A DNA stretch of 32,015 nucleotides from the IMG/VR virus record IMGVR_UViG_3300033076_000385, positions 1-32,015 of that record; one strand, written 5' to 3'. Made by a program: the position numbers and the translations under genes. The DNA is from a virus (taxonomy: Duplodnaviria; Caudoviricetes). The notes under the pieces are model-generated. The model saw only the letters and a list, made by a program, of their open reading frames with translations, searched no databases and was not told where the DNA came from. Each line of letters begins with the position of its first letter. Positions within the stretch are counted from its first letter, which is position 1. Below are positions 1-30,992 of this stretch, in pieces.

Positions 1-515
1 CCTGATGTAGTAATTGATGTACCCGAACTACCTGAAGTTCCACTTACACCACTCGTACCAGAAGAACCACTCGATCCTGAAGTTCCTGAAGAACCAGATG
101 TACCACTTACACCACTTGTCCCTGAACTACCTGAACTACCTGATGTTCCACTTGTTCCAGAAGAACCACTAGAACCTGAAGTTCCTGAAGAACCATTAGA
201 TCCCGAAGAACCAGATGTTCCTGAAGAACCACTAGAACCCGATGTACCACTAGAACCTGAAGAACCTGAAGTACCTGATGTTCCACTACTTCCCGATGTT
301 CCAGAAGAACCTGAAGAACCACTAGAACCCGATGTACCACTTGTACCACTAGACCCATTAGAACCCGAACTACCCGAAGTTCCACTACTTCCTGAACTAC
401 CTGATGATCCAGATGTTCCCGAACTACCTGATGTTCCCGAACTACCACTTGAACCCGAGCTTCCTGATGTGCCGCTAGAACCACTAGAACCCGACGTACC
501 ACTTGAACCTGAAGT
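1..515 (-). repeat. 9-bp-period coding repeat, tract B (G-S/T-S triplets, truncated by the window edge)
   Basis: Same unit types as tract A; shares a 52-bp identical segment with it. Confidence 0.9.
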
Positions 516-1736
516 CGCGGCGGTATATTGTGTTCCGTTTATAAATAATTCAGGAACTCTTAATGATTTATTAGTGTTCCAACTATCATTTGCACTTGTG
601 TATGTAATTGTTGCAGGTGTTGTTGGACCTACTACCTCAATACCAGCACCGTTAGCAGCCGCGGCGGTTAAAGAACCACTCGCTAATGTTATTGTTTTAT
701 CCTCAATATATAATTGAGTAACTTGTAAATTTGTATTTGCACCTTGAACTAATAAATTGTTTGTAATTAACACGTCACCTGTTACAGTTAACGTTGTACC
801 GTCAAATGTTAAATTAGTCTCTGCTGTTACGTTTGGAGAAGAACCGTTCAATGTTAATACACCATTATCTTGTGCTCCTGTCATTGTTACAGTACCACTT
901 GAACCTGAAGAACCACTAGAACCTGATGTTCCTGAAGTTCCTGATGTACCACTTGAACCATTTGACCCTGACGAACCCGATGTTCCAGAAGAACCTGAAG
1001 TACCCGCGGTTCCTGAAGTTCCTGAAGAACCATTAGATCCCGAAGAACCAGATGTTCCTGAAGAACCGCTAGAACCAGAAGTTCCTGATGTACCTGATGT
1101 TCCTGAACTACCTGATGTTCCACTACTTCCTGAACTACCCGATGAACCCGATGTTCCAGAAGAACCCGAAGAACCACTAGAACCTGATGTTCCACTACTT
1201 CCCGAACTACCCGATGAACCCGATGTTCCAGAAGAACCCGAAGAACCACTAGAACCTGACGTACCAGATGAACCACTAGAACCTGATGTTCCACTTGTTC
1301 CAGAAGAACCACTTGATCCACTTGATCCACTAGAACCTGAAGACCCCGAACTACCCGATGTTCCACTAGAACCTGAAGTTCCTGAAGAACCATTAGATCC
1401 CGAAGAACCAGATGTTCCTGAAGTTCCTGACGATGCTGCAGTATATTGTGTTCCGTTTATGAACAAATCACCATCTATTTTAACTGAACCTGTAACAATT
1501 TGGTCAGCTTTAAAGATGTTACTTCCTGTTATAGCAAATTCTGAGGAATCTTTTCCGTCTAATAATTGTGAGTTAAGAGATACTGATGATGTTGCTGCAT
1601 AAGAGGAACTAATCGCATTTGATGTAGTTCCACTAATGGTAGCATTAATCGTACCTAATACTGTTAAATCTTGTTGTACATTTACAGAACCCGATACTGA
1701 AAGGGATCCCGTTATAAATGGCTCAAATATTTTCAT
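1..1736 (-). CDS. Collagen-like (Gly-Ser/Thr-Ser)n repeat protein, probable phage tail fibre/virion surface protein; 3' end runs off the window
   Basis: Not in the ORF track. Manual translation from ATG at 1736: MKIFEPFITGSLSVSGSVNVQQDLTVLGTINATISGTTSNA...LFINGTQYTAASSGTSGTSGSSGSNGSSGTSG... I saw no stop before position 1. Gly occurs at every third residue in two tracts separated by a beta-strand-rich spacer. Confidence 0.85.
   Translation of the reverse strand, partial: MKIFEPFITGSLSVSGSVNVQQDLTVLGTINATISGTTSNAISSSYAATSSVSLNSQLLDGKDSSEFAITGSNIFKADQIVTGSVKIDGDLFINGTQYTAASSGTSGTSGSSGSNGSSGTSGSSGTSGSSGSSGSSGSSGSSGSSGTSGTSGSSGSSGTSGSSGSSGSSGTSGSSGSSGSSGTSGSSGSSGSSGTSGSSGSSGSSGTSGSSGTSGTSGTSGSSGSSGTSGSSGSNGSSGTSGTAGTSGSSGTSGSSGSNGSSGTSGTSGTSGSSGSSGSSGTVTMTGAQDNGVLTLNGSSPNVTAETNLTFDGTTLTVTGDVLITNNLLVQGANTNLQVTQLYIEDKTITLASGSLTAAAANGAGIEVVGPTTPATITYTSANDSWNTNKSLRVPELFINGTQYTAATSGSSGTSGSSGSSGTSGSSGSSGSSGTSGSSGTSGSSGSSGSSGTSGSSGSNGSSGTSGTSGSSGSSGSSGTSGSSGTSGTSGSSGSSGTSGSSGSSGTSGSSGSNGSSGTSGSSGSSGTSGTSGSSGSSGTSGVSGTSGSSGTSGSSGSSGTSGVSGTSGSSGTSITTS
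894..1433 (-). repeat. 9-bp-period coding repeat, tract A (about 60 G-S/T-S triplets)
   Basis: Units such as cctgaagaa/cctgatgtt/ccactagaa on the + strand; includes a 72-bp tandem duplication, 1111-1182 and 1183-1254, with 1 mismatch. Confidence 0.9.
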
Positions 1737-1739
1737 CTA

Positions 1740-1791
1740 GATATAAAATTTTATATCCTATAAATACTTAGCATTTACGTTCAAGTGTCAA
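1740..1791 (-). promoter_or_regulatory. Upstream control region of the fibre gene: TTGACA (1791-1786), TATTTATA (1766-1759) and a perfect 18-bp palindrome GATATAAAATTTTATATC (1740-1757)
   Basis: Read directly from the 1737-1803 intergenic region; function inferred. Confidence 0.45.
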
Positions 1792-1803
1792 ATATTTACA
1801 ATC

Positions 1804-7354: not shown

Positions 7355-8062
7355 TTATAGTAAATCTTTTGGAAAAAGTTGTGGATATTTTTCTCTAATA
7401 TTCGTTTGTTTTTCTTGACTGAAGTATTTGATTTTAAAGTCTTTGTCGGGTCTATATTGTGGATTGAAATATACGATATGAAGTTTACCTGACATTAGTA
7501 AATCGTATATGTAATCTTCAAATTTTATATTAGGTATCTCAGTACCTACCCCCTTTATTTGATATAGTATTCCTTGTTCTTGATTATGAACAATTGCTAC
7601 ATGTGAAAATCCGTTACCCCTCTCATCTATCTCCCTCAACTCAATTAAATTATCCTCATAATTACATCTACCACAATTATCCATTCTTACAATCATTTCC
7701 ATTGAGTGGTGTCTCTTTAAATCCACCCAATAATAACCGACTCCATTTACTCTGTAATCTAAAATGATTTCATTGGTTTCTATGTAATTTTTTGATGTGT
7801 AATTTTTAGAATATTCAGAAATCGAGTTCTTCCATAAATCTTCAATTTCCAACACGGTCTTCTCATTCAATATTGAATAGTCGGAATTGTTAATATTTTC
7901 AACATAATTTGCGACATTATATAATATAACAGATAAAGTGAAATCAGAACTCTTTCTTATCGATGGGTATGATGCTTGTATTTTACTTAATGTTAACTCA
8001 GCATTTTTTAACCCCACTACTTTTATTGTTAATTTTAATTGGTCTAAATAAGAAGATGCCAT
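7355..8062 (-). CDS. Hypothetical protein
   Basis: 235-aa ORF coupled by TAATG to the upstream gene; contains CGRC and YQIKG; no family recognised with confidence. Confidence 0.7.
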   Translation of the reverse strand: MASSYLDQLKLTIKVVGLKNAELTLSKIQASYPSIRKSSDFTLSVILYNVANYVENINNSDYSILNEKTVLEIEDLWKNSISEYSKNYTSKNYIETNEIILDYRVNGVGYYWVDLKRHHSMEMIVRMDNCGRCNYEDNLIELREIDERGNGFSHVAIVHNQEQGILYQIKGVGTEIPNIKFEDYIYDLLMSGKLHIVYFNPQYRPDKDFKIKYFSQEKQTNIREKYPQLFPKDLL

Positions 8063-8550
8063 TATATTAAAGTCTTGTTTATATCTTTTTTATTTCCTAA
8101 TCTTAATCTATTTTCACTGTTTGGGTCGAATATATCTTCATAATATGTTATGGGTACATTCAATATCTTTGATAAACTATGGATTTCATCATTCCATTTA
8201 ATAATGTCGTCATATGCTATCTGATCTATGGGTGTCTCTTCCCAAAAATATTGTTGGTTAGAATTAAATCCTTTAGAACTGTTATGTACTCTATATGAGT
8301 GACTTTCTGCACATGCCTTTAGGTCTCTCCTACTTAATAAAATAATCTCGTCAAACCTTTCAGATAATTTAACATTATCGTCATGTTGACATATTATAGT
8401 TTTGACTACAGAATTATCTTCATTATTATAAATCACTCTACCACTACCATCAAATGGTTCAAAATAAGGTTTAAGATTCTTTTCTTTTGATATTTTATGT
8501 AATAAAGAAGTTGACCCCGTTCTTGGTAATGATATGATTAAAATCTTCAT
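8062..8550 (-). CDS. Small sulfotransferase-like protein (P-loop/Stf0-like)
   Basis: N-terminal ILIISLPRTGSTSL (5'-PSB-like loop), FEPF, ILLSRRD, ITYYED. Confidence 0.7.
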   Translation of the reverse strand: MKILIISLPRTGSTSLLHKISKEKNLKPYFEPFDGSGRVIYNNEDNSVVKTIICQHDDNVKLSERFDEIILLSRRDLKACAESHSYRVHNSSKGFNSNQQYFWEETPIDQIAYDDIIKWNDEIHSLSKILNVPITYYEDIFDPNSENRLRLGNKKDINKTLI

Positions 8551-9071
8551 ATTAATTTCTTAGTGTCATCTAATTTATGATAAATAAAATTAGTATCGTT
8601 CATCCATATGTTGAGAGATTGTCTAATTCCTATATTAACAGGCATTACTCCATGAAAAATTTTATTACCTTCGAATGTTACACCCTCACCCATTTTTAAA
8701 TCTAATTTAATTTTACCATTTTCTAATTCAGTATCAAAATTTGATAATACGAATCTACCGTCTTTATAGTTAGTAGTTAATGGTATTACGGTGGTGTAAT
8801 TGGATGTTTTATCAAGATGTAAATCTAACCTCCTACCATCATAATATTGGGTGAAACTTACATTTATATTCCTTATATTAAAAGAATCAAAAGATTGTAC
8901 ATCTAATATAGACTTTAAAATTTTAGATTTAAATTCTTCATTATATATTCTTTTACAATCCCAATTATCATTGGGGTTATATGAAAATTGGTCACCGTTT
9001 TTTAAACAAAATTCAATGATTTCATTACATTCTTCTTGATTGAAGTATTGATTGATTTTGTATTGAATCAT
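8547..9071 (-). CDS. 2OG-Fe(II) oxygenase (prolyl-hydroxylase-like)
   Basis: HLD...FHGVMPV..GIRQSL (HxD...H...R). Confidence 0.85.
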   Translation of the reverse strand: MIQYKINQYFNQEECNEIIEFCLKNGDQFSYNPNDNWDCKRIYNEEFKSKILKSILDVQSFDSFNIRNINVSFTQYYDGRRLDLHLDKTSNYTTVIPLTTNYKDGRFVLSNFDTELENGKIKLDLKMGEGVTFEGNKIFHGVMPVNIGIRQSLNIWMNDTNFIYHKLDDTKKLI

Positions 9072-9886
9072 AATAAATTAGTTTTTACATTATCGAAATT
9101 CTCTTCCAATAAATTATGATTAATAATCCATTCATAAATTAGGCCGGAAAGTATTTCATACCCATTTTTATTTGGGTGTTTTCCAAATGTATTTATCCAC
9201 AAAGAATTATCTTCCCAAACATCTTTTCTATTCGTTTCTGTTAACAAATCTTTCATTGTTTTTTGACCGAAATGCATGTAATGATTTTTATTAATTAGAT
9301 GTGTTTTATCAATTGTATTATTTGGGTTGTTAACCATTAAATCAAACGCATCACAAAATAAAAATTTAACACCCATTCTTTGAAACATAAACTGTAAGTA
9401 TAAAATGTAATTTTGATTTACTATTTGGTAATAGGTTTCATCATACAATTCATTAAAAAAATATGTTTTATATTCTTTTTTAAAAAATGAATAATCTTTA
9501 TTTTTTGATTCTTTTATGTTATCGAATATGAATTTATATAGATGTTGTTTAGAGGTGTATCTTTGACCCCAAAAATGCCACTCATCCTTCGGGAAAAATG
9601 GGACCTCATCTCTTAATGATGAACTCCACATTATGACCACTAAATCGTTAGTTTTAATCTTATCCGTTTCTAAAAACGAACAAACGGCATCGAAGATTGT
9701 CTTATTAGAACAACCACCGATGCCGTTATTTTGAAATTGTATATATAGTTTTTCTGCCAATTTTGTTGGCCAACTATGAAGATGTCTAATTTTTGTTTTC
9801 TCTACGTAGTCATCGACTTTATTTTCTTCAGTCAAATCCGATCCAACTCCCTCAGTCCAACTATCACCAAACGTAAATAACTTCAT
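9068..9886 (-). CDS. SGNH/GDSL hydrolase-fold protein
   Basis: FGDSWTEG, GIGGCSN, C-terminal KHPNKNGY. Confidence 0.75.
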   Translation of the reverse strand: MKLFTFGDSWTEGVGSDLTEENKVDDYVEKTKIRHLHSWPTKLAEKLYIQFQNNGIGGCSNKTIFDAVCSFLETDKIKTNDLVVIMWSSSLRDEVPFFPKDEWHFWGQRYTSKQHLYKFIFDNIKESKNKDYSFFKKEYKTYFFNELYDETYYQIVNQNYILYLQFMFQRMGVKFLFCDAFDLMVNNPNNTIDKTHLINKNHYMHFGQKTMKDLLTETNRKDVWEDNSLWINTFGKHPNKNGYEILSGLIYEWIINHNLLEENFDNVKTNLL

Positions 9887-9897
9887 AAATCATAAAC

Positions 9898-10026
9898 TTA
9901 TGATAAATGTTTTGTTTTAATTTTATTTACAACTTCCTGTACCGCCGATGCAATTTTAGTTTTTTTATCTGCAGTTAATGGTGTAATGTTTACTTTAATT
10001 ACACTATTTGGTCTTTCTATTTTCAT
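9898..10026 (-). CDS. Small basic 42-aa protein
   Basis: MKIERPNSVIKVNITPLTADKKTKIASAVQEVVNKIKTKHLS. ATG 10026 follows an A-rich leader and fills the gap between neighbouring genes; the track's 10110 start would overlap the upstream gene. Confidence 0.65.
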   Translation of the reverse strand: MKIERPNSVIKVNITPLTADKKTKIASAVQEVVNKIKTKHLS

Positions 10027-10048
10027 TTTATTTTGTTTTATTTTTTTA

Positions 10049-11536
10049 TTAGAGTTTTGAATATCCACCAAAACAACCTGGACAATAATAACTGTTGCAA
10101 TAGTGACCACAATAATTCCACGGACACCAACAAGAGTTGTGCATTACCCCATAATCACCGTCACCAAAATCAACTAAGAAAAGGTCAGATGGTTCAAAAT
10201 CTAAACTATAAATGGTCATATTGGCATGCTCCATTTCTAATCCGGTGATTTCTAATGTTGTTAATTGTTGAGTATTTGAATCAGTAACAATTAATTTATC
10301 ACCAATAACCAATTTATTTAACTTTTCAAAACGAGTTGCGGTAGAATTAACCTCTTCTATATAATACGTACAAGACGGAGCATCTACCCAACTTTTACCG
10401 TCTGCAGTTGTAATTCTAATGTAAATTGTATCAACTAAAGAACCAACTATACCATTTAATGTTGATCCTGTTGTTGTTAATGTTTCATTTGAAAGTGCAA
10501 CCGTTCCTTCCCAACCAAATAATTCTAACTTTTCTCTTTCAAATTTTCCACCATGATTACCATGTGAATCGACAAAATCAATAGATTTAATCATGTCCCC
10601 TATTTGTATGGTGTCCACATCTTTTAAAGTCCCATCAAATGATAATATCATTGAATCTTGGTCGGTGTGATAATCTTTACTAGCAAAATTACCTAATTCT
10701 TTTGTGATATATTTGTACCTACTTTTTTGATTTAATTTAAAAGTATTTTCTACGTATTCATCAGCACTAAAAGTAACAGGAATAATGGTTGATTGTTTAT
10801 ATCCACCCATATTAATAACATCTAAATTACCACCATAAATGATATCGATACTTCTAATGATTGCATATCTACCATCAACCAAATTGTCCGAAGAATATAC
10901 AAATTCTTGTAATAAAACAGAGTCAGTCTGGTTTAATTTTAACGTCTCAAGGTCACCAATAGTTGGTACTGTGTATATTTCAGGATATAGTTTTTGGTCA
11001 TATTCAGGATTTCTTGGTTTTACCAATAGATTTGGGTGAGTCAAATCACTCAAATCAACCGAAGTTAACGTATCCATAGATAAACTTGTGGAGTTGAAGT
11101 ACGTATTGGGGATATATGTTGATCCGCTCATTAAATTGAAAAATTCGAATTTATCAGCACAATATGTTTCATCCACCAACGCAGTTGTGTCAAATGATTG
11201 TCTTAAAATGAATTTGTTCGGTGCATCCTCAACAAATGGAACAGTAACAGAACCTCTAGGTACAGTATATTCGGAAAATGTGATATTATTTTCACCACAT
11301 TTTTGTTCTAAAATTTGTTTAAATCTAAATGTTTGGTTAAGTGGTTTATATGAGTCAGATTCTGTCCATATGAAATGGAATTCAGTTATCGAATTATTCA
11401 CCAACATGGTAAATAACGAATCATAATCCAAAAAATCCGCACCATCATTGTAAATGGTGGTATTTGTGTTAATTTCAAGTATTTTAACGTCCCCGTTTTG
11501 TTCTAGAAGGTCAGTTCCAATTATTGTACCTTTCAT
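10049..11536 (-). CDS. Circularly permuted ATP-grasp-like domain + Hint (intein-like) domain + C-terminal Cys/aromatic-rich peptide
   Basis: GTDLL..GDVKILEINTN at the N-terminus, then LLVKP and LLQEFV (ATP-grasp elements in permuted order). Hint-like N block SMILSFDGTLKDVDTIQIGDMIKSID; C block TIYSLDFEPSDLFLV...VMHN|S; then SCWCPWNYCGHYCNSYYCPGCFGGYSKL. Confidence 0.7.
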   Translation of the reverse strand: MKGTIIGTDLLEQNGDVKILEINTNTTIYNDGADFLDYDSLFTMLVNNSITEFHFIWTESDSYKPLNQTFRFKQILEQKCGENNITFSEYTVPRGSVTVPFVEDAPNKFILRQSFDTTALVDETYCADKFEFFNLMSGSTYIPNTYFNSTSLSMDTLTSVDLSDLTHPNLLVKPRNPEYDQKLYPEIYTVPTIGDLETLKLNQTDSVLLQEFVYSSDNLVDGRYAIIRSIDIIYGGNLDVINMGGYKQSTIIPVTFSADEYVENTFKLNQKSRYKYITKELGNFASKDYHTDQDSMILSFDGTLKDVDTIQIGDMIKSIDFVDSHGNHGGKFEREKLELFGWEGTVALSNETLTTTGSTLNGIVGSLVDTIYIRITTADGKSWVDAPSCTYYIEEVNSTATRFEKLNKLVIGDKLIVTDSNTQQLTTLEITGLEMEHANMTIYSLDFEPSDLFLVDFGDGDYGVMHNSCWCPWNYCGHYCNSYYCPGCFGGYSKL

Positions 11537-11561
11537 AATTTTTTATATATTTCTTTTATAA

Positions 11562-11575
11562 TATAAATATAAATA
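11562..11575 (-). promoter_or_regulatory. Two overlapping TATTTATA motifs upstream of the ATP-grasp/Hint gene (possible phage promoter)
   Basis: TATAAATA on the + strand at 11562-11569 and 11568-11575; the same motif lies upstream of the fibre gene. Confidence 0.35.
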
Positions 11576-11578
11576 TTC

Positions 11579-11875
11579 TTAAATTAAAGTTTTATCGATT
11601 TTATCCTCTAAAATATCCATGTGTTTTGAATCCACCTCTTTCCATAGTTTTAAAGGACAACTATTGTATAATTTTGAAAATATTTTCTTATTTATTGGAC
11701 AACTACATTTTCCACAGTATGCGGACCACATGTTGTTTTTTATTAATTCATTCCTGAATTCACAACCGAGACACACTTCTAACCTTTCATTTGCCAATTT
11801 TTTTTGAGTTTCGTTTGGTTTAAAAGATGTGACCCATGAATCGAATATATCTTTATAATTTGGTTTCTCTATCAT
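11579..11875 (-). CDS. Small Cys-rich putative metal-binding protein (DUF6171-like)
   Basis: RLEVCLGC...CGKCSC...K......CPLKLW pattern. Confidence 0.65.
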   Translation of the reverse strand: MIEKPNYKDIFDSWVTSFKPNETQKKLANERLEVCLGCEFRNELIKNNMWSAYCGKCSCPINKKIFSKLYNSCPLKLWKEVDSKHMDILEDKIDKTLI

Positions 11876-12633
11876 ATTAATGTCACCTCTTTTTTGGGGA
11901 TATCGTAAAAATCGTATATATTATTATAATTTTTAATAAATTCATCATCCATGTGTACCTTACAGTCTATATGACTACTAGAATTTACATTTTTTATTTT
12001 AAATGGTTTGTTAGTAATATTTGAAATCCATTCTTCCATTTTTGACAACTCATTAATATTGAACCATATTATGTCCTTATTATGGTTATGCCAAACGGAA
12101 GATGGTGTTAATAATATATCAATTATGTTTATCACGTATTCATCTGGATTCATCGACATTTTGTTGGGTATTTGTACCTTTTTATTGATTAACCCATTTT
12201 CATATAAGTAGTTAGATATGGTATCCCATCTACTTTTTTTAGTTACCAAATCATCCGTTTTCCAAAAGAATAGCTCATTAGTTGTTAGATTGGATAAATG
12301 TTTAGATATTTCACTATAACCTGTCCTATTCAAATCAAAGATTACATGTTTAAATAATGAATAAAAAACCTCATGTCTATCTCTATACACTGCTATGATT
12401 GGGTATGTGGTACCAAATTTTTCTTGTAATTCGATTAAGGGGACATGTCCGTGTACTATATGATTCATTATATTTGATTCATCTATATTTTTAAAATCTA
12501 TTTTAGAATTTTCAATATCAGAATAATCCCCTGTATTTTTTATATCCAAATTATATAGTATACAGGAATAATGAAAAGATGTCGATCCTCTTCTAGGTAA
12601 TGATATATATATGAATTTATTATCTATTAACAT
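11872..12633 (-). CDS. Sulfotransferase-like protein (sulfotransferase family 2-like)
   Basis: FIYISLPRRGSTSF, HGH, AVYRDRHEVFYSLF (3'-PB-like); paralog of 12633-13355. Confidence 0.65.
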   Translation of the reverse strand: MLIDNKFIYISLPRRGSTSFHYSCILYNLDIKNTGDYSDIENSKIDFKNIDESNIMNHIVHGHVPLIELQEKFGTTYPIIAVYRDRHEVFYSLFKHVIFDLNRTGYSEISKHLSNLTTNELFFWKTDDLVTKKSRWDTISNYLYENGLINKKVQIPNKMSMNPDEYVINIIDILLTPSSVWHNHNKDIIWFNINELSKMEEWISNITNKPFKIKNVNSSSHIDCKVHMDDEFIKNYNNIYDFYDIPKKEVTLI

Positions 12634-13355
12634 TATATAATTGTATTTTGTTTTTTAAAAGTTTCATACGTACCATAAATTGATTCATATTTTTGTTTGA
12701 AGTTGTCGTCATTGACGATATTCGAACAATACTCTTTACTCGAACCAAAATTTTCTAATTTAAAATTTATTCCGCAAGTTTTTGAAACCCATCTTTCTAA
12801 TTCAATTAAGTTTTCAAAATCGAACCATATTATATTAGAATCATTTGTATGATAATAGGATAAAGGGGCAAAAATTGGCATAAGTAATTCATTCAATTTC
12901 GGATTATAATAATCGACCCCAAGTTTTTTTAAAAATTTTGGGATGTGTCGTTCTATCATAACTTTAGATATCACTGTTTCCTTTTTATAATCCATCAATT
13001 CATCGGTGGTCACATTTTTAAATTTATTATAAAGTTCGATTTCCCCCATTTTATATAATTGTCCAATTACATGATTAAAATAAGAAATGAATCTTTCGTA
13101 TTTGTCTCTTTTTACTGATATAACTGGGTAATTGTAACCAAATACCGCTTTTATATCCGTTAATTGCTCATGAATATGTTTAATTCTATAAACTAAATCT
13201 ATGTTTGGTATATTTGAAATATCATAATCAAATACAGTATCGTATTTTATTTGGGTGTGTTCTACTGTTAAGTTATTTCTAAAACAACTTAAATGAAATG
13301 ATGTGGATGCACATCTGGGTAAACATAAAAATATAAATTTATTATCTACCAACAT
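12633..13355 (-). CDS. Sulfotransferase-like protein (sulfotransferase family 2-like)
   Basis: FIFLCLPRCASTSF, SVKRDKYERFISYF. Confidence 0.7.
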   Translation of the reverse strand: MLVDNKFIFLCLPRCASTSFHLSCFRNNLTVEHTQIKYDTVFDYDISNIPNIDLVYRIKHIHEQLTDIKAVFGYNYPVISVKRDKYERFISYFNHVIGQLYKMGEIELYNKFKNVTTDELMDYKKETVISKVMIERHIPKFLKKLGVDYYNPKLNELLMPIFAPLSYYHTNDSNIIWFDFENLIELERWVSKTCGINFKLENFGSSKEYCSNIVNDDNFKQKYESIYGTYETFKKQNTII

Positions 13356-14005
13356 TAGAATAAACTTTTTTCTTTTTTAATTAATTCAAACCCAACGTTT
13401 CCAGCCATAACGATTCTATCTACTGTTGATTTTGGTGCGTTCATTGGTGCATGTGGCATCCAACCCGGCATCACCACTAAATCATCTTCTTCGGGTCTAA
13501 TCCAATGTTCTTTCCCATTATCACCTTTAAAATATAAAACACCATCCTCACCCTCCATTACATCCGGCATTTGAATATAGTAAACATACGTATAGTGTGG
13601 GGTAAACGAACCCATTTCTTTATTTATATCAGTATGGATGTGATATTTTTGGTCGGTATGAAAATTTGATTGTACGGGATTTTGAGATCGAACCATATTC
13701 ACCCACGCATCGGTATTAATTTTATTATACGGATTTTTAATTTCCTCCTCCCAAATTTCTTTACATTTATCAATACCCGATTGACAAATCAAATCTAATT
13801 TATTTATTATTTCAAATTGTCCGTTGAAATTTATATCATTGGTCCATTCTTTTTTATAACCATATCCGTCGGTTTCCGCCGCTCGTTGTCCTTCGTAACT
13901 TTTAATTAATTTTTTTGATTCAATCAAAAGTTCTTCTTTAATATCGGTTAAATTTAATTTACCAACCCAAATGTATGTTGAGTCATCAAATTGTATTTTT
14001 TTCAT
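13355..14005 (-). CDS. 2OG-Fe(II) oxygenase-like protein (TIGR02466-type)
   Basis: AWVN, HIH, YVYYI, PGWMPHAP, DRIVMAGN. Confidence 0.75.
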   Translation of the reverse strand: MKKIQFDDSTYIWVGKLNLTDIKEELLIESKKLIKSYEGQRAAETDGYGYKKEWTNDINFNGQFEIINKLDLICQSGIDKCKEIWEEEIKNPYNKINTDAWVNMVRSQNPVQSNFHTDQKYHIHTDINKEMGSFTPHYTYVYYIQMPDVMEGEDGVLYFKGDNGKEHWIRPEEDDLVVMPGWMPHAPMNAPKSTVDRIVMAGNVGFELIKKEKSLF

Positions 14006-14334
14006 AGTAAATGTTTTAAAATTATATACGAACTAATGCCAATCCAAATCGTATTAAAGAGAATAAGTGTTGGTAAACTCTTTCTCATGGATGCCCAAAT
14101 TAAAAGTGAGGATGTTATTAAAGTCACAAAATGCATCCACCATATTTCAACACCAAAAACCAAACCAGGTATTATTATAATAGCCTTTGCCATCCATGCC
14201 GATAATTCAATTGTGTTATAATTTGTCCAATAATTCTCATCCTTGAACATCATGTATTTTTCAATTATAAAATCCCACCCAACTACAGTATATAGTAACC
14301 CCGTTATCGTTAAAAATGTAAGTAACCAAATCAT
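14002..14334 (-). CDS. Small multi-pass membrane protein
   Basis: 110 aa with 3-4 hydrophobic segments. Confidence 0.7.
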   Translation of the reverse strand: MIWLLTFLTITGLLYTVVGWDFIIEKYMMFKDENYWTNYNTIELSAWMAKAIIIIPGLVFGVEIWWMHFVTLITSSLLIWASMRKSLPTLILFNTIWIGISSYIILKHLL

Positions 14335-15572
14335 ATTAATTTTTTTTCTAATTGTTTTTTATTTTTACCAAAAACTAACTGATAATTACCAATAAAAAAA
14401 GTTAGTTCATTTATTTTAGTTTCAGTTAATTCGAATGAATTTATTAATTCAAAATCGTTATGAATTTTTATTGATCCGTCATCGTTTAATATTTTTTGTA
14501 ATTTTTCGGGTATCGGCATGTTCACACAATCTTTCCAAAATTCGGTGTCGTTTCTTTCACAGAGATAGTGATATCTAACAAACAACATATTTTGTTCGTT
14601 TATTTCACTACACCATTTGTTGTAACTGTCTCTATATGTTTCATCAAAATTCACATCGATTAATCGTTTCAATTGCATAACAACAGTCATTAACGATGTT
14701 GCTTCTAACGGTTCTAAAAAACTATAAGATAAACCTATTGCAACACTATTTTTAATCCAACTATGTTTGTATGTACCTGGTTTAAAATCAAATACTTTTT
14801 GTATTTTAATTTCGTGTCCTAAATGTTCCTCAATTTCTTTTTTAGCATCGTCTACCGAAACATACGAATCATTGAACACATAACCACATCCCCATCTATG
14901 TTGTAATGGTACTTTCCACATCCACCCGCAATTCATAGATGTTAATTCGGTTGTTGTTTTTTCTTCAAACTTATATTTGTTTGATTGGGGTAGGAAGAAT
15001 CCAAATGCTTTGTTAAGTAATAGATATTTTGAATAACTTACCCAATCATCATTATGAATTTTATTAAAAATTATCCTTGAGAAACCACTACAATCAAAAA
15101 TGAAATCCAAATCTATTACATCTGAATTATCTAATACAATTGAATTGATTTCACCATCATTATGATTTATGGTTTCCACTATACCATCGATGTGATTAAT
15201 TCCTCTTTCTAATGCTATTGATTTTAAATAACTCGCGGTTAATTTTGCATCAAAGTGAAATGCATAACCTGTTTTACTTTTGGCATCCTCACCTAACATT
15301 ATATGGTAAAATGTATTATTTTGATTTGTCCAATTAATAAGTTCCAATCCCTTTTTAACTGTTGCACCTGTCTTTTCAAAAAAATCGCGTTGGTCAATAT
15401 CTAATAACATTAACATTTTTCCAAAATTAGATGTAGAACCTTCTCCGGCACCTAATATACCAATTTTAGAACTTTCGATTACTGTGACGTTGGTGTCTTT
15501 CCAAAACTTTTGAACAACCAACGCAGTTAACCAACCCGCAGTTCCTCCACCAACTATGACCACTTTTTTCAT
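14331..15572 (-). CDS. Flavin-dependent tryptophan halogenase family protein
   Basis: VVIVGGGTAGW, GAGEGST, ATVKKG (catalytic Lys position), FDCSGF, WMWKVP (WxWxIP-like), FLEPLEAT. Confidence 0.88.
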   Translation of the reverse strand: MKKVVIVGGGTAGWLTALVVQKFWKDTNVTVIESSKIGILGAGEGSTSNFGKMLMLLDIDQRDFFEKTGATVKKGLELINWTNQNNTFYHIMLGEDAKSKTGYAFHFDAKLTASYLKSIALERGINHIDGIVETINHNDGEINSIVLDNSDVIDLDFIFDCSGFSRIIFNKIHNDDWVSYSKYLLLNKAFGFFLPQSNKYKFEEKTTTELTSMNCGWMWKVPLQHRWGCGYVFNDSYVSVDDAKKEIEEHLGHEIKIQKVFDFKPGTYKHSWIKNSVAIGLSYSFLEPLEATSLMTVVMQLKRLIDVNFDETYRDSYNKWCSEINEQNMLFVRYHYLCERNDTEFWKDCVNMPIPEKLQKILNDDGSIKIHNDFELINSFELTETKINELTFFIGNYQLVFGKNKKQLEKKLI

Positions 15573-16138
15573 ATTAAACTAATTTTCTTTGTGGAACTTG
15601 GCCAAACATTTAATGAATATCTCTTACCCGATTTTATTTTATCTACGGAATGTAAAATATTTGAATCGAAAATGAATACACTTCCTTTTATTTTTGGTAC
15701 ATCATATTCCACACCTTCTAACATATATTTTACAAGTCCATCTTCATAATCATCATTTAATTGAATAATATATGTAATGGTTGCACCGTTTATAATTTCA
15801 TGTCTGTCTTCGTGCCATTCTAAAAAATCACTGTCCCCATATCTATTAAAAGAGTATTTGGGAATTCTAACATATTCAACGGAATTAAATGGTTTTATTT
15901 CATTAGAAAGGTCAATTATTCTTTTTGAGATATTAACTAAAAGTGGATCCATTAAAAATTCATCGGTAAAATAACAACCTGACCTTTTATTACCTGAATA
16001 TGATATATTCTCCTCCACAACTTTACCATTAACAATACGAGACGATTTCATTTGATTTAACCCAAACGATTCACCCATCTCAATTATCAAATCACATTCT
16101 TCTTCGGTAAGAAAATTTTTAACGAATTTTGTAAACAT
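15569..16138 (-). CDS. 2OG-Fe(II) oxygenase (prolyl-hydroxylase-like)
   Basis: FLTEEEC, WHED, HSVDKIKSGKRYSL. Confidence 0.88.
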   Translation of the reverse strand: MFTKFVKNFLTEEECDLIIEMGESFGLNQMKSSRIVNGKVVEENISYSGNKRSGCYFTDEFLMDPLLVNISKRIIDLSNEIKPFNSVEYVRIPKYSFNRYGDSDFLEWHEDRHEIINGATITYIIQLNDDYEDGLVKYMLEGVEYDVPKIKGSVFIFDSNILHSVDKIKSGKRYSLNVWPSSTKKISLI

Positions 16139-16350
16139 TATTCTTTTTTTAAACCAAATTTAATCCACTTATACCATATTCTTTCGTGTATATAATATTG
16201 AATGGGTTTATATACTAATTCGGCAACTCCAAAAGCTGCTCCGACCTTTACCGATCCACTTATCCACCACATAATCGCAAAACCAATCAATGTACTAATA
16301 ATACGATATGAAATAGTTTTAGCTATGTGTCTTTTACGTTGTACTATCAT
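16138..16350 (-). CDS. DUF2061-family small membrane protein
   Basis: RHIAKTISYRIIST...YYIHERIW. Confidence 0.8.
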   Translation of the reverse strand: MIVQRKRHIAKTISYRIISTLIGFAIMWWISGSVKVGAAFGVAELVYKPIQYYIHERIWYKWIKFGLKKE

Positions 16351-16727
16351 TATCCCTTATTTTCATCATAAGTCATGGTTCCATCCGGTTTCATATGTCC
16401 GGTTCTAATTGCAGTCCCACTAATTGTTGCAATATCAGTTGGTGGCTCGTGATAGATTACATCATAACCCACACCTCTACCATAGTTCACACTTTCAATA
16501 TCAGGAATTACTGAAATAAATAACTTACCCGTTTGTAGTAAATCATGTAATTCAACTTTTAATTCATCAAATACTTGTTGTGCGGTTTTTGGATTGTTCT
16601 CATCCACTTGTACATCTCTAATTGCCAACCAAACATTTTTACCTTTGTTTAATTGTTGGTCTATCAACCATTGATGTCCTTTGTGCCAGTTTTGCCATCT
16701 TCCGATGTATAATGCATATTTTTTCAT
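16350..16727 (-). CDS. Cytidylyltransferase-like (HxGH) nucleotidyltransferase
   Basis: GRWQNWHKGH, ISGTAIR (SxT/SxxR-like). Confidence 0.8.
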   Translation of the reverse strand: MKKYALYIGRWQNWHKGHQWLIDQQLNKGKNVWLAIRDVQVDENNPKTAQQVFDELKVELHDLLQTGKLFISVIPDIESVNYGRGVGYDVIYHEPPTDIATISGTAIRTGHMKPDGTMTYDENKG

Positions 16728-17161
16728 AGGTCTATCATTTTTAAAATTTCAATAAAAGATTCATCTTCTCTTCTATCTGTTGTATTAATGTTTAAATAAT
16801 TTTCCAATGGGGGTTCATAATCTTTGACGTGAAAAGATTCCCTTCCTCTTTCATCGGTAGTGTTAACATATATCTCAGTAACACTGTTTTCTTTTTTAAA
16901 TTGTTCTCTTTGTTCTCTATAGGGAGATACAAGTGAGACAACAACAGAGTGTCCTTTGGAATTCATAAATCGGGCAATATCTTGTGCCCTTTCTATGTTT
17001 CTTTTTCTACCGTTTTCGGAATAGTCTTGATTATTAAAAATGTCCCTTAAGTCATCACCATCTATATGGATGACCTTTTCCGTATTGCTCAAATACGAAA
17101 TTAAATGTTTTGCTAGTGTGGTCTTACCTGCACCAGGTTGACCTGTAAACCAATATATCAT
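16724..17161 (-). CDS. cysC: Adenylyl-sulfate (APS) kinase
   Basis: WFTGQPGAGKTT, IDGDDLR, R..NI.R, VSLVSPY, YEPP. Start moved from 17197 to ATG 17161. Confidence 0.85.
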   Translation of the reverse strand: MIYWFTGQPGAGKTTLAKHLISYLSNTEKVIHIDGDDLRDIFNNQDYSENGRKRNIERAQDIARFMNSKGHSVVVSLVSPYREQREQFKKENSVTEIYVNTTDERGRESFHVKDYEPPLENYLNINTTDRREDESFIEILKMIDL

Positions 17162-17168
17162 AAGTAAT

Positions 17169-17197
17169 AATATAATGGTTTTTTTTGAAAAAATCAA
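17169..17197 (-). promoter_or_regulatory. sigma70-type promoter TTGATT-17-TATATT, probably producing a leaderless cysC mRNA
   Basis: -35 at 17197-17192, -10 at 17174-17169, then 7 nt to ATG 17161. Confidence 0.55.
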
Positions 17198-18123
17198 ATG
17201 ATTTTTGGTATGAGTGAAATCAATTCTTCTTTTAAAAGATTAACATTTTTTTCCCTAAACTCTATATCTGTTTTATAGTAATATTTGTCCAACCAAACAT
17301 GATAATAATCAATTTTTTCTGTGTGGTCAACTCTATCGGGGTCCTTTACCCAAAACAAACCTTTTCCACAATGTTTTGGTCCTAAAACAGGTAATTCGGG
17401 ATAAGATAAGTATAATCTATCCTCCACAGTTTCAACCTTACAATCTAATTTACGGGCAGAATATCCCATAATTCCTTGATCTGCAAGTAACCATAACCAT
17501 TCGGGAACTTCTTTATATTCTCGAGTAATTAAGTCCAAATGACTTTCTAAGTATAAATCCCTTAATTTTTCGTTGTTCATTAATATGAAAGACGTATTAG
17601 GCATCATCATATTTTGGACAAAGTTTTGAATACCACCTATCTGTTCTAATTGATATTCGAACACGAAAAACTCCCCTCTTTGTATCTCCCATTGAGTATG
17701 GACTAAATCGTAATCATTGGTCCATTTTGGTAGGGGGCTCCTCAATATAAAATCTAAATCCAAAAATAGATATGGTACAGGTTCTTTACCAATAACAATT
17801 GATTTACCCGTTGTCCAAAAACGACCCGGATTAACGTGAGAATATTCTTTGTTAAATGTTTCCAATGTCTCAACATCTATTTCATCCCACAACTTTAATA
17901 AACCCTTCTTTTTATAGAATTCATAACCAACGTTATCGGTGTATAATTTTGTTTTACCTATATACTTTTTAGCGGCCCTTACACTTACCTCTTGTATTAG
18001 TAATTCATAATCAACTACATCATATTCAACATCAGATAGTTCTGACATTTTTAATTTATTATATCCCTGTGCATCCTTTTTATGAAAAAATGGTGCCGTC
18101 CAATTTACAAATATTGCTTTCAT
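17194..18123 (-). CDS. GT-A-fold glycosyltransferase-like protein (DUF6734-like)
   Basis: KLYTD, FWTTGK, PYLFLDLD, PNTSF, ADQ; resembles 24103-25140. Confidence 0.6.
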   Translation of the reverse strand: MKAIFVNWTAPFFHKKDAQGYNKLKMSELSDVEYDVVDYELLIQEVSVRAAKKYIGKTKLYTDNVGYEFYKKKGLLKLWDEIDVETLETFNKEYSHVNPGRFWTTGKSIVIGKEPVPYLFLDLDFILRSPLPKWTNDYDLVHTQWEIQRGEFFVFEYQLEQIGGIQNFVQNMMMPNTSFILMNNEKLRDLYLESHLDLITREYKEVPEWLWLLADQGIMGYSARKLDCKVETVEDRLYLSYPELPVLGPKHCGKGLFWVKDPDRVDHTEKIDYYHVWLDKYYYKTDIEFREKNVNLLKEELISLIPKII

Positions 18124-18896
18124 ATGTGTTGAAAATATATATCTTTTTTCATTAATTGTGAAATATGTTGATTCAATTCTCGTTGATTGAAATGATTTTC
18201 TAATTTAGCATTACATACAATAGGTTCATATCTTTTTATATACTCATCCAAACTACTACATCTCCTTTTTGTAAATTCTACGAATGACATTTCTTCTGAT
18301 GCGATTCCAATCTTTTGTGTTGTGTTAATATCTATTAACTCATCTATTACATCAACACTTGAACAATATATGAAACCAGCGTTTGGTGTGACAAAGGAAT
18401 TATTCCAATCGTAATGGTATTTTTCTAAAAATTCTTGTTGTTTAATCACATAATCCTTTTCTTTCGGTGGTATATCTTTCCATTCATTTAAAACGAGTTC
18501 CGAATAATTCTTAGGATAGATGTAAAGTGGCATTTGTATCTTTAAATCTTTGGTTTCTATATGTTCGTAAAACCAATTATCAATCGGTTTTACTTGTAGA
18601 CAATCCCAATCTAAAAAAATCACCTCATGATATAATTTAATACCTTCTTTGATTGCAACCAGTTTATGAATCATGTATTGATTTGAATCGTACAAATAAT
18701 CTGAACCATATTGTGTTGATTCGTTTGATAATAATACACATTCAAAACCCAAAGACTTTATAAAATTATAATTTTCAGTGCCCCAAACAAAAACAACTTC
18801 ATACAATGATTTATTTTTTGACACTTCAATTATTTCTTTCTTATGTCTTTGGTTAAAGTTATTTAAATCTCCCCAAAAAGATCGTATGAATTTCAT
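18120..18896 (-). CDS. DxD glycosyltransferase-like protein
   Basis: HKL, VIFLDWDC, TPNAGFIYC; tandem paralog of 18893-19660. Confidence 0.6.
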   Translation of the reverse strand: MKFIRSFWGDLNNFNQRHKKEIIEVSKNKSLYEVVFVWGTENYNFIKSLGFECVLLSNESTQYGSDYLYDSNQYMIHKLVAIKEGIKLYHEVIFLDWDCLQVKPIDNWFYEHIETKDLKIQMPLYIYPKNYSELVLNEWKDIPPKEKDYVIKQQEFLEKYHYDWNNSFVTPNAGFIYCSSVDVIDELIDINTTQKIGIASEEMSFVEFTKRRCSSLDEYIKRYEPIVCNAKLENHFNQRELNQHISQLMKKDIYFQHI

Positions 18897-19660
18897 AGAT
18901 GTTTAAAATAAATTTCTTTTTCTATCTTCCTATTTTTATATTCGGTAAAAACCGCTTCCATGTTATTCCACCAATCGTATCCGTGTTCTTTCCCATCCAC
19001 AACTAAAGGTTCTATTTTTTCAATATAACCATCCAACCCTAAGTTTTTGGTATATAGAAATACCGATAACTCATCGGGAACAGTTTGTAAATCGTGTTGA
19101 ACTATAAGTTTTATTAATTCTACGATTATATCTTTATTAGAACAATATATGAATCCGGTGTTTGGGATTATAAAACTATTTCCATATTTGAAGGAGTAGT
19201 TTGTTATATATGTTTGTAATTTTTTAAAGAAGTTTATCATGATGTCATCTTTAACATCACTAATCATTCTATCGAATGCAAACATTGGGTATGTGTATAG
19301 AGGTACTTGAAAATCAGAATTTCTGTTTCTAATTAAACTATAAAAATTATCATCAATTTCTTTTACTTTTCTACAATCCCAATCAACAAACACTATCTCT
19401 TCGTGTTGGTGTAGAGCATGTCCGAGTCCAATTATTTTGTGGATTAAACTTTTGTGATTTACAAATGTGTGATTATCTGCAATTGTATAATCATACGGGT
19501 CATCACTTATTAAAACACAATCATATCCCAAGTTTTTTAAATTGTTATAGTTGTCTTTTCCCCACACATAAACAACCTCATTAAGATTGTCACTTTTGGC
19601 ATCAATTATTTGATTTTGGTATCGATTAAAATCTCCCCACAATATTCTTACGAATTTCAT
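18893..19660 (-). CDS. DxD glycosyltransferase-like protein
   Basis: HKI, IVFVDWDC, IPNTGFIYC. Confidence 0.6.
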   Translation of the reverse strand: MKFVRILWGDFNRYQNQIIDAKSDNLNEVVYVWGKDNYNNLKNLGYDCVLISDDPYDYTIADNHTFVNHKSLIHKIIGLGHALHQHEEIVFVDWDCRKVKEIDDNFYSLIRNRNSDFQVPLYTYPMFAFDRMISDVKDDIMINFFKKLQTYITNYSFKYGNSFIIPNTGFIYCSNKDIIVELIKLIVQHDLQTVPDELSVFLYTKNLGLDGYIEKIEPLVVDGKEHGYDWWNNMEAVFTEYKNRKIEKEIYFKHL

Positions 19661-20364
19661 ATTAACTTATTTTTATTTATTTTTAAACTAATCAAATCAC
19701 TCAATAATTTATGTGCAATATGATTTGGGTGTTTATCTTGTGGGTCCACATCATTTCTACTATCACTTAATGTGATTTTACTTTCTGTTGCCCATCTCAT
19801 AATTGATGGTGTGTATTCATTTGATGGTAATAGAAAAGTAACTGTTTTATCGTTATCAATAAATTCATGAAAATTATCATCCAAAAACAGATAAACATAC
19901 CTAATACCAATAGTCTTTTCTAAAAATTTTAAAGTGTCGTTAACTCTATTAAACTTATAGAATAAGGTTTCTTTTGACCAATCATTTACAAAAGACATTA
20001 ATGATAATATTTTATCATCGGTGAACGGATATTTTTCTCTTCCTCCACCCCATTGATTCATTACTCTGACAGTATCTTCCAACGTCTCCCCAATCCCCGC
20101 GCTTGAATAATAAAACGAATTGTTAACCATAAACCCTTCTCGATTACCCGCAGTGAATTGGTAGATTATTAAATCATCTTTTTTAAATGTATTAATATCC
20201 GATAATAAACGATGAAAAATCTCATTGTGACATAATGCTGGAAAAGACCTATTATTATATTCACAACCCATATATTTCGCCAATAAATAAGTAAATGATT
20301 CTTCTTCGTTAATCCAAAACGGAAAAGAGAATGAACAACCATATGTGTGTATTTTTTTCATCAT
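19657..20364 (-). CDS. SGNH hydrolase-fold protein
   Basis: YGCSFS, C-terminal DKHPNHIAH. Confidence 0.65.
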   Translation of the reverse strand: MMKKIHTYGCSFSFPFWINEEESFTYLLAKYMGCEYNNRSFPALCHNEIFHRLLSDINTFKKDDLIIYQFTAGNREGFMVNNSFYYSSAGIGETLEDTVRVMNQWGGGREKYPFTDDKILSLMSFVNDWSKETLFYKFNRVNDTLKFLEKTIGIRYVYLFLDDNFHEFIDNDKTVTFLLPSNEYTPSIMRWATESKITLSDSRNDVDPQDKHPNHIAHKLLSDLISLKINKNKLI

Positions 20365-21014
20365 AATAAGGTTAATAAATGTTTTGCAAACATTAAATGA
20401 GATTGCTCACTGAAATGTAAATCATTTATTAGATTGTTTGTTTCATTTTTTATTGACCCATGTGTATCGATGAAATAATCGTAGATATTTTTTCCGTTAT
20501 ACGTTAACATATATTTTGACTGTATGTTCATTCCCCAAAAAAACAACTTACATTTTCTCATTTTACAAAACTCATTAATCAATGTGTAATGATTATTAAC
20601 TTCGTCCACAAATAAATGATTAGTTCTATTTAAAATAGTATCTTTAATTGTTTGGGTAGACATACCTAAATCATTTAAATTTTTCAATTCTTGAATTAAA
20701 TCAGGATGGTCTATATGTTGAAATAAAACGTTATACCACTTATCACCGGCAACTCTAAATCTAGATGTTTCGGTCCAATTGATGATGACGATGTCATTTT
20801 CTTTTATTTGATTAGAACACTTTGAGAAGTTCTCCATTATCTGTGGATTATTGGTTCCCGATATGGCGTGATTTTCTAATTCGTAATTAATATCTCTACT
20901 TAAAATTTCACTCCATGTATCTATCTGATACCCTTTCCATTTGACATAATCTTCTCTGTCTTTGGGTTGTCTTTCATCCGAAATCGAACACCCAAATATC
21001 CATAATTTATTCAT
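20361..21014 (-). CDS. SGNH hydrolase-fold protein
   Basis: FGCSIS, NHAISGTNN, WTETSR, DLHFSEQSH. Confidence 0.7.
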   Translation of the reverse strand: MNKLWIFGCSISDERQPKDREDYVKWKGYQIDTWSEILSRDINYELENHAISGTNNPQIMENFSKCSNQIKENDIVIINWTETSRFRVAGDKWYNVLFQHIDHPDLIQELKNLNDLGMSTQTIKDTILNRTNHLFVDEVNNHYTLINEFCKMRKCKLFFWGMNIQSKYMLTYNGKNIYDYFIDTHGSIKNETNNLINDLHFSEQSHLMFAKHLLTLL

Positions 21015-21592
21015 TAATATTCAATTTTGTGGTCTTGTGGTAAAGTTAAACTTTGTCCAACGATGACATCTCTTTCGCCACTAACAGTTTGGGTTACGAA
21101 ATGAGGATGTGTAATTCCTCCGGGAAAAACTATAACATCTCCTTTGTTTAATTTTACACTTATACCTTGTCTAGGAAATGTGAGTACACCACCAACATAA
21201 TTGTCATTTAGACAACCAACAGTAGTTATCCCACTAAAATCCCAATGTACATTGTTTTCAGAATTACCCGAATTTTTTGGTGAATAATGAAGAAGAAAAA
21301 CATCTCTCCACTTTGCTGACACATAATTTTTAATGTCTTTAATTGTTTGTTCACTAACATTAAAACCTTTACCACTTTGGACATCATATATTTTAAAATA
21401 ATCATCCATCATGGGGGTTTCAATTTTATTTAACCAAAAATCATTAAACTCCAACAACAAATCTTTATTGTGTTCATGAATATTAATTCTATCTATGTTA
21501 TTAGAATCTTTTCTCAGTTGAATTAATTTTTCAATTAATTCATGGGGGATAATTTCTGTAAATAAAAATATATCAGATCCTAAATTTCTCAT
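21014..21592 (-). CDS. 2OG-Fe(II) oxygenase (lysyl/prolyl-hydroxylase-like)
   Basis: HWD, LNDNYVGG, FPGGITHPH, SGERDV. Confidence 0.85.
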   Translation of the reverse strand: MRNLGSDIFLFTEIIPHELIEKLIQLRKDSNNIDRINIHEHNKDLLLEFNDFWLNKIETPMMDDYFKIYDVQSGKGFNVSEQTIKDIKNYVSAKWRDVFLLHYSPKNSGNSENNVHWDFSGITTVGCLNDNYVGGVLTFPRQGISVKLNKGDVIVFPGGITHPHFVTQTVSGERDVIVGQSLTLPQDHKIEY

Positions 21593-22326
21593 ATTAAATT
21601 AGTTGGTTTCACTCCATCATCTTGAATGTTGAAATTTATGACACATCTATGTGATTTACCGTAGAAAGGTTTCACCGAATGTACAATGTCATATGGCCAT
21701 ATTAATAACATACCCTTCTTAGGTCTAATAAAATGTGACATTCCTCTTAAATGGAATGTGAATACTCCACTATACTGATGGTCTAATAATGGGTCACCAT
21801 CTGATAGATAATAACCGCCAACAAAACTTAATGGTCTAGCCTCATCGGGACTCCATCTACAATGATTATGCATGTTGTGTCCACGACCTTTATATGGATG
21901 ATAATATTGAATCCAACTCTCAGTGATATTTGGTTCTCCTTGAGGTTTCTTATTAATCATTTCTAATAATTCCAAATAACCGTCAGTACATCTTTTTTTT
22001 ATTTCTTTTACGATGTCTTCGTTTCTATTTAAAAAGTTATTTGGTGGAACTGAAAATCTACTACCTATTGGGTTATATTCGGTAGGTTCCACCCACTGAT
22101 CCCAACGATAATAATCAACATTATAGTTATCCTGTCTATTAAAATCATATTGTTCAGGTAATTCTTGTCCCATTTGTTTTTCCTTTTCGGTCAATTCATT
22201 AAATCCAAGATTAAACACTTCATCGTGAAAATCATGGTCATGAAATTCTTTATATAAAACAGGTATGGGTGCCAAATAGAATAAATTTTCTTTTCCTGAT
22301 GGCATCAATGGTTTTTCAAAGTACAT
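21589..22326 (-). CDS. 2OG-Fe(II) oxygenase-like protein (TIGR02466-type)
   Basis: ESWIQ, HNMHNH, GGYYL, HSVKPF, RCVINFN. Confidence 0.8.
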   Translation of the reverse strand: MYFEKPLMPSGKENLFYLAPIPVLYKEFHDHDFHDEVFNLGFNELTEKEKQMGQELPEQYDFNRQDNYNVDYYRWDQWVEPTEYNPIGSRFSVPPNNFLNRNEDIVKEIKKRCTDGYLELLEMINKKPQGEPNITESWIQYYHPYKGRGHNMHNHCRWSPDEARPLSFVGGYYLSDGDPLLDHQYSGVFTFHLRGMSHFIRPKKGMLLIWPYDIVHSVKPFYGKSHRCVINFNIQDDGVKPTNLI

Positions 22327-24094: not shown

Positions 24095-24102
24095 ACTAAT
24101 AA

Positions 24103-25140: not shown

Positions 25141-25141
25141 A

Positions 25142-25669: not shown

Positions 25670-25681
25670 AATATCATAATT

Positions 25682-26862: not shown

Positions 26863-26863
26863 A

Positions 26864-27891: not shown

Positions 27892-27895
27892 TATT

Positions 27896-30991: not shown

Positions 30992-30992
30992 A

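Follow-up and report, generated by a model that had tools for sequence, protein, structure and literature searches.

The window analyzed here, meaning the whole stretch of 32,015 nucleotides, is an entire viral contig (IMG/VR record IMGVR_UViG_3300033076_000385) with a G+C content of 31%. A minus-strand ORF (11536-10049) encodes a 495-aa protein that combines, from N- to C-terminus, an amide-ligase fold driven by ATP, a self-cutting Hint fold, and a short peptide with six Cys and one Lys (Table 1). The ORF and its protein sequence are those given in a first-pass annotation of this DNA, as is the composition of the 28-aa tail (residues 468-495, 10135-10052), with 6 Cys, 2 Trp, and 5 Tyr. The tail also lacks Asp and Glu. 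Three features described below were absent from that annotation: an obligate 42-aa partner gene, a C-terminal tag on neighboring proteins, and relatives without a Cys tail.

Table 1. Features of the ligase-Hint-peptide locus, in window coordinates.
Feature	Coordinates	Strand	Basis or remark
Six-Cys aromatic tail, residues 468-495, with single Lys494 (10055-10057)	10052..10135	-	Predicted released cargo
Circularly permuted ATP-grasp amide-ligase domain, residues 1-281	10694..11536	-	Model, fold matches, conservation
Hint domain, residues 290-467	10136..10669	-	Full model, fold matches, profile match, conservation
42-aa basic amphipathic partner gene, directly downstream	9898..10026	-	Synteny; likely ligase-Hint subunit
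98-aa Cys-rich protein, phrog_13558 (function unassigned), tagged	11579..11875	-	Accompanies Cys-rich cargo
Two sulfotransferase-like genes, tagged	11872..13355	-	PR-x-x-ST motif
2OG-Fe(II) oxygenase, 110-aa hydrophobic protein, Trp-halogenase-family enzyme, 2OG-Fe(II) oxygenase	13355..16138	-	Pfam; all tagged
SGNH/GDSL-like, 2OG oxygenase, sulfotransferase-like, 235-aa protein of no known kind	7355..9886	-	All tagged
Supply genes: 70-aa protein, HxGH nucleotidyltransferase-like protein, APS kinase	16138..17197	-	Untagged

The tag consists of two large hydrophobic C-terminal residues (Leu/Ile), often in the form K-x-L-I. It is found on 16 of the 37 window genes, including every one of the 11 flanking genes from 7355 to 16138, and it ends 15 genes of unrelated folds across 7355-22326 (minus strand). 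The APS kinase, cofactor-supply, and sugar-enzyme genes of the window do not have it. We considered whether the tag might be an artifact of overlapping stop and start codons and rejected this explanation, since the ending persists where there is no overlap (180 of 187 family genes versus 27 of 305 other genes) and is written with mixed, synonymous codons. The families were chosen for having the tag, so these counts exclude only the overlap artifact.

Among the untagged supply genes, the APS kinase is well matched (APS_kinase, E 1.8e-20) and the HxGH motif was read from the sequence; the APS kinase block is likely to supply PAPS. A member of the sulfotransferase-like family matches Sulfotransfer_2 at E 6e-4, which is below the cut-off. 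Further away, a minus-strand block at 22466-31973 holds a carbamoyltransferase, a split TPP-dependent E1-like pair, and RmlC-like and epimerase-like genes; it is an untagged sugar/cofactor block whose last gene groups were named from motifs only. DUF6734 and related paralogs (17194-19660 and 24103-25215, minus strand) carry the tag in only some cases. A low-complexity repeat region at 1-1800 (minus strand), with long repetitive frames on both strands, is possibly a Ser/Gly/Thr-rich fiber gene and could be an alternative substrate of the enzymes.

Searches of Pfam, PHROGs, and NCBIfam with the 495-aa protein matched no family, and neither GSP_synth nor any other Pfam family was reached at E ≤ 0.1. 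Sequence searches of the PDB and of 50,697 GenBank phage records gave no match. One scan of GTDB with one pattern returned 14 candidate stretches and no relative, which is weak evidence of absence from cells. The ligase-Hint family is large, with members found in viral contigs only. Among 6710 candidates, 584 homologs had E ≤ 0.001, and the best 120 of these 584 were used for comparisons among close relatives. Further searching gave 76 longer homologs and 259 clusters at E < 1e-30, of which the best 150 were listed. Single-sequence locus scans yielded 0 loci with P0149 as the query and 1 locus with P0185. Conservation was counted in 311 unique full-length proteins, plus 144 new 50%-cluster representatives. 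The viral contigs that carry relatives reach 334 kb, so the source is likely a large phage. The ligase-Hint-peptide feature is real and widespread in viral contigs.

The ligase domain was modeled with high confidence (pLDDT 95.3 for residues 1-285). In this predicted model, residues 1..281 align to residues 94..378 of YgiC (Z 10.4, rmsd 4.0, 214 aligned). YjfC (Z 9.9), GSP synthetase (Z 9.0-9.2), and the yeast and plant glutathione synthetases (Z 10.2-10.4) also match from residue 1, and Foldseek agrees with a permuted ATP-grasp fold (best E 6.4e-6). The unpermuted enzymes RimK and TTL align only from about residue 50 onwards, a sign that permutation has moved the D..E-x-N strands to the front, in line with the circular permutation that the first-pass annotation had read at the N-terminus. 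In the 144 representatives, D9, E21, N23, R112, D122, K173, and R228 are almost invariant (D9 in 137, E21 in 138, N23 in 139, K173 in 140, and R228 in 139, the remainder being mostly gaps). The metal and ATP roles of D9, E21, N23, K173, and R228 are presumed from general ATP-grasp chemistry. Of the motifs called earlier, QEF is weaker than implied, with poor conservation family-wide (Q210 in 72/144, E211 in 70/144). At the Arg position of the YjfC R-x-D motif (R-M-D), the family has G, S, A, or T, in a register taken from a weak hhalign match (E 0.11); hhalign found no significant match to YjfC. Modeled fold and conserved residues together identify the domain as a GSP-synthetase-like permuted ATP-grasp, for which amide ligation is predicted.

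A Hint fold is present over residues 290-467 of the full-protein model (pLDDT 87.4), where it had been proposed from motifs. The best match is BIL2 (Z 16.6, rmsd 1.9, 139 aligned), several inteins align end to end with residues 290..467 (2in0 1..440, for example, at Z 16.2), and the KlbA intein is matched by profile (E 6.4e-8). Position 1 is His290 and the terminal residues are His466-Asn467. The block-B His is absent, with D385-A-P-S388 at that site. Both the His at position 1 and the missing block-B motif had been recognized earlier by manual alignment. The F13 position is Asp451 by sequence alignment. F4 is Ser444, at a position that is variable in the family and where Cys is never among the commonest residues. 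Asn467 is kept in 311/311 unique full-length members and His466 in 306/311, so the His-Asn pair that the first-pass annotation had singled out for checking is close to invariant. Position 1 in the same 311 members is His in 249, Ser in 22, Lys in 20, and other residues in the rest. Because it is never Cys, splicing looks disabled, as had been suggested.

We compared these residues with the criteria for class 1-3 inteins in PMC4031507. Class 1 features are missing: there is no Cys/Ser1 and no block-B TxxH, and the +1 residue is non-nucleophilic (not Cys, Ser, or Thr) in 154 of the 280 tails described below. The class 2/3 features (B7 Thr, B10 His, F4 Asp with Cys+1, or F4 Cys) are likewise missing. 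As given in the consulted parts of PMC4031507, these criteria exclude class 1-3 splicing in the window's clade and leave Asn cyclization. The protein resembles a Type A BIL in its C-terminal His-Asn without a required +1 nucleophile; the thioester-forming Cys1 is lacking in the first Hint and present in relatives' second Hints. The window's Hint is therefore predicted to cut at its C-terminus only, and we regard Asn467-dependent cleavage as probable. The same parts of PMC4031507 describe an F13 His that assists Asn cyclization, where the window's Hint has Asp, and a reduction of C-terminal cleavage in KlbA when the block-B His is lost. His290 was rejected as a family-wide catalyst, as His occupies this position in only 30 of the 144 representatives. 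A His at position 1 and one at B10 are nearly mutually exclusive, on few clades. In one clade (L149-L177; cargo of 64-100 aa, mostly with S74), Ser1 and the B10 His occur together (16/22), so this clade may cut at both ends.

The tail lies outside the confident part of the model (pLDDT <50 for residues 470-495). After removal of duplicates and 9 rows (4 mis-parsed, 4 of 151-162 aa, and 1 empty), we had 280 tails of 23-109 aa, of which 194 end at the stop codon, 61 precede an S74 chaperone, and 25 precede a second Hint. The number of Cys is even in 279/280 tails and in 66/67 spacing patterns, with a range of 4-14. In the representative set, where 12/144 rows were not placeable, it is even in 74/74 tails of 15-110 aa (a set that overlaps the 280 tails in part) and odd in 5 of the 11 tails longer than 110 aa. 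Even Cys counts fit disulfide formation. A check of tail variability had been proposed, and a hypervariable tail among close relatives was rejected: in the best 120 of the 584 homologs, the tail core is 75% identical, compared with 70% (ligase) and 72% (Hint), and only the last seven residues are variable (37%). This conservation would count against a fast-evolving effector.

Lys is the residue that stays constant downstream of the Asn. It is present in 194/194 stop-type and 61/61 S74-type tails, and exactly one Lys is found in 179 of the 194. In the second-Hint type it is absent from 25/25 tails and is placed after the second Hint instead. The representatives agree, with Lys in 90/90 stop types; by comparison, Arg is missing from 39/74 and Glu from 36/74 representative tails, and Asp and Gln are often missing too. 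A Poisson estimate for Lys in 74 tails, which ignores relatedness, is about 3e-8. Five representatives carry only a 5-7-residue Lys stub as a tail. Since Lys is kept even in such tail-less stubs, the constant core consists of ligase, Hint, Asn, and downstream Lys, and the distribution of tails identifies the Cys peptide as the apparent payload of one large family branch. We lean toward Lys as the acceptor of the ligase.

The domains fused behind the tail are themselves self-cutting, being either S74 or Hint domains with Cys1 and TxxH. In a FastTree tree of the representatives, these additions fall in several separate branches, and the fusions were gained several times. This bracketing of the tail by a second self-cutting domain agrees with tail release as its likely purpose, which the first-pass annotation had predicted. 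The Pfam cut-off for S74 was passed in 4/32 scanned proteins, with sub-threshold matches in others, and the S74 Ser-Lys dyad is not an independent count because it belonged to the search pattern. S74-type domains cut before Ser, according to the portion of PMC8326128 consulted. Each second Hint has Cys1, contains a TxxH-like motif, and ends in His-Asn, with a Lys no more than a few residues beyond (31 rows). A large clade consists of chains of Hints with short spacers, ending in a Lys segment in 52/60 cases and another Hint type in 7, with one cut off. Free-standing genes of these kinds are few in the flanks: there are 3 Hint matches, and the sole S74 match is a cut-off family member.

Two further arrangements were seen. 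Two or three extra tandem Cys1 Hints, with 1-12-residue spacers and Lys at the end, occur in L229 (7001 onwards), P0300, P0331, and P0334, where they resemble inserts that would be spliced from a short peptide. In L231, L241, L245, L256, L262, L271, and L294, the last Hint-like domain has no His-Asn and has a different conserved ending motif.

A gene for a helical protein of 24-50 aa lies directly behind the family gene in 138/138 de-duplicated loci, and such a partner is found in 57/60 short-cargo loci. This synteny makes the window's 42-aa protein a likely subunit of the ligase-Hint protein. In P0324, a partner-like helix is fused directly to a ligase domain with no Hint; this protein has Gln at E21 and may be a broken gene.

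The tailoring-enzyme context that had been anticipated takes the form of a conserved halogenase/oxygenase/sulfotransferase cassette, which places a ribosomal core in a cluster with tailoring enzymes, as is characteristic of RiPPs. No PqqD/RRE match was found among 29 scanned window proteins and there is no leader between Hint and core, although a remote RRE is possible. In loci with 5 kb on both sides, Cys cargo is accompanied by the 95-98-aa Cys-rich protein (65/68), ST1 (54/68), and the halogenase (34/68). The halogenase is found in 34/61 loci with a Trp-containing tail and in 0/7 without Trp; locus L220, with a halogenase and a Trp-free tail, is a counter-example. The halogenase, ST1, and the tagged Cys protein are found in 0/40 short-cargo loci, which keep 2OG oxygenases (34/40) and often SET-like domains (12/40). 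These enzyme-cargo correlations follow one or few clade splits. Tagged SET-domain proteins lie beside short-cargo members at L231:6416-6853, L246:11767-12183, and L255:4034-4420. Even where the cargo is just a few residues long, 51/60 loci have three or more tagged enzymes, which raises the possibility that the enzymes do not serve the tail.

The explanation that we favor, tentatively and as plausible rather than probable, is that the ligase-Hint-peptide fusion yields a self-releasing, tailored, lysine-coupled peptide and acts as a hub for decorating its own C-terminal peptide. The ligase-Hint part and the 42-aa helix would stand in for a leader peptide and would recruit enzymes through the C-terminal Leu/Ile tag. 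The halogenase, 2OG oxygenases, and sulfotransferases would then act on the Trp, Pro, and Tyr residues of the tail while it is tethered, and its Cys would pair as disulfides. The ligase would activate the C-terminal carboxylate of a protein, most likely of a tagged protein, and join it to the epsilon-amine of Lys494, much as YgiC/YjfC would join peptides to spermidine. Cyclization of Asn467 would free the product. We propose the ligase-tag-Lys step because the enzymes with the nearest folds are annotated as coupling a polyamine amine to a peptide carboxylate and the cassette offers a constant amine together with a constant class of C-termini. Several points count against this explanation: Asp at F13, no block-B His, no R-x-D Arg, the small number of clade splits, and the inability of a single Lys to hold 11 enzymes simultaneously. 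We hold more loosely, as a possibility that is on balance doubtful, the full inverted logic in which the tag is on the enzymes rather than the substrate, the ligase-Hint hub couples the tag to the single Lys and frees a halogenated, sulfated, disulfide-knotted peptide, and the virus-encoded peptides form a natural library of hundreds of frameworks.

The tag could also be read as the mark of a protein-labeling device, in which the ligase attaches Lys494 to tagged enzyme C-termini, the conjugate is set free by the Hint, and the peptide serves as an address label. In that case the enzymes would modify something else, such as virion fibers or the host surface. The tag does stand at the exact C-terminus of all 11 flanking proteins and persists with stub cargo, the ligase-Hint and helix genes are the only near-universal ones, and linking an amine to a peptide carboxylate is what the closest folds do. 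We nevertheless consider labeling unlikely, since the halogenase, ST1, and the Cys protein go together with Cys/aromatic cargo and even Cys counts suggest an oxidized, exported product over a cytoplasmic label. We give still less weight to a Hint that is an inert scaffold in an otherwise ordinary ligase, whose tail would stay attached and bind metal or form disulfides. Two Zn could be coordinated by the six Cys, close relatives share a conserved tail core, and the F13 and block-B His are absent, but Asn467 is invariant while the remaining Hint drifts, the even Cys counts of 4-16 are not multiples of four, and tails can shrink to the Lys stubs.

The two remaining alternatives concern what attacks what. 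In Hint-driven coupling as in Tetrahymena BUBL BIL2, Lys would attack a thioester or the Asn succinimide and the ligase would act elsewhere. BIL2 is the top fold match and, according to the consulted part of PMC8616854, forms Lys-epsilon isopeptides, and the family's extra Hints end in HN-K. This is improbable for the window's protein, whose Hint has no residue-1 nucleophile; Lys is also obligate in members without a second Hint. We give least credence to the version in the first-pass annotation, in which the ligase acts on the Ser newly exposed at the N-terminus of the released peptide, to cap or cyclize the peptide. An alpha-amine would become available on cleavage, and the +1 residue is Ser in 79 of the best 120 of the 584 homologs. 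Across the 280 tails, however, 17 different residues occur at +1, Pro being one of them (24 tails), and the last residue is variable too, which leaves Lys as the conserved handle.

A literature search, restricted to main texts and thin on subscription journals, found no description of a ligase-Hint-peptide fusion, and the parts consulted of the borosin, BIL, and cyanophage-cluster literature name no such fusion, partner, or tag. As far as this search reached, the system is undescribed. If our favored explanation is correct, large aquatic phages make heavily modified disulfide peptides without a leader peptide or separate protease, and they recruit unrelated enzymes through a short C-terminal tag, in a previously undescribed way of making modified peptides. 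It would supply the halogenase/oxygenase/sulfotransferase islands found in large phages with a substrate; the products of these islands have been only guessed at in the sources consulted. It would also offer diverse new disulfide scaffolds and a compact, genetically encoded tool for lysine ligation and self-release.

Among known peptide classes, graspetides have a core rich in Asp/Glu acceptor pairs and a RimK-type ligase. We rejected this assignment because the window's tail and 92/194 stop-type tails lack Asp/Glu and the ligase is permuted. Conotoxin-type peptides combine disulfide frameworks with halogenated Trp, hydroxy-Pro, and sulfo-Tyr; this product class would match the window's enzyme set, by analogy only. 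In polymorphic toxins, the PT-HINT domain releases a payload. YgiC/YjfC, GSP synthetase, and eukaryotic glutathione synthetase share the permuted ATP-grasp with D..E-x-N first (Z 9-10.4), and peptide-spermidine ligase activity of YgiC/YjfC is named in the E. coli annotation and in a cited title. Compared with the YgiC/YjfC group, the window's ligase is smaller (starting from YgiC residue 94), is 13-16% identical, lacks the R-x-D Arg, is viral, and is fused to a Hint and a Lys peptide. Type A BILs, BUBL BIL2, and PT-HINT share the Hint fold and the His-Asn end without a conserved +1 nucleophile (PMC4031507, in the parts consulted), whereas the window's clade lacks Cys1 and the block-B His and has a ligase upstream and a small Cys-peptide payload. 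Cyanophage clusters of the S-SSM6a type likewise contain a phage halogenase, 2OG oxygenases, and a carbamoyltransferase; the consulted portion of PMC7824862 proposes small-molecule or capsule products for them and names no ligase-Hint-peptide gene or shared tag. The borosin OphMA is, like the window's protein, an enzyme fused in frame to its own core, for which the enzyme acts as a very long leader (PMC8429565, in the part consulted). Here the fused enzyme is a predicted amide ligase, release is proposed to occur through a built-in Hint, and the tailoring enzymes carry a tag.
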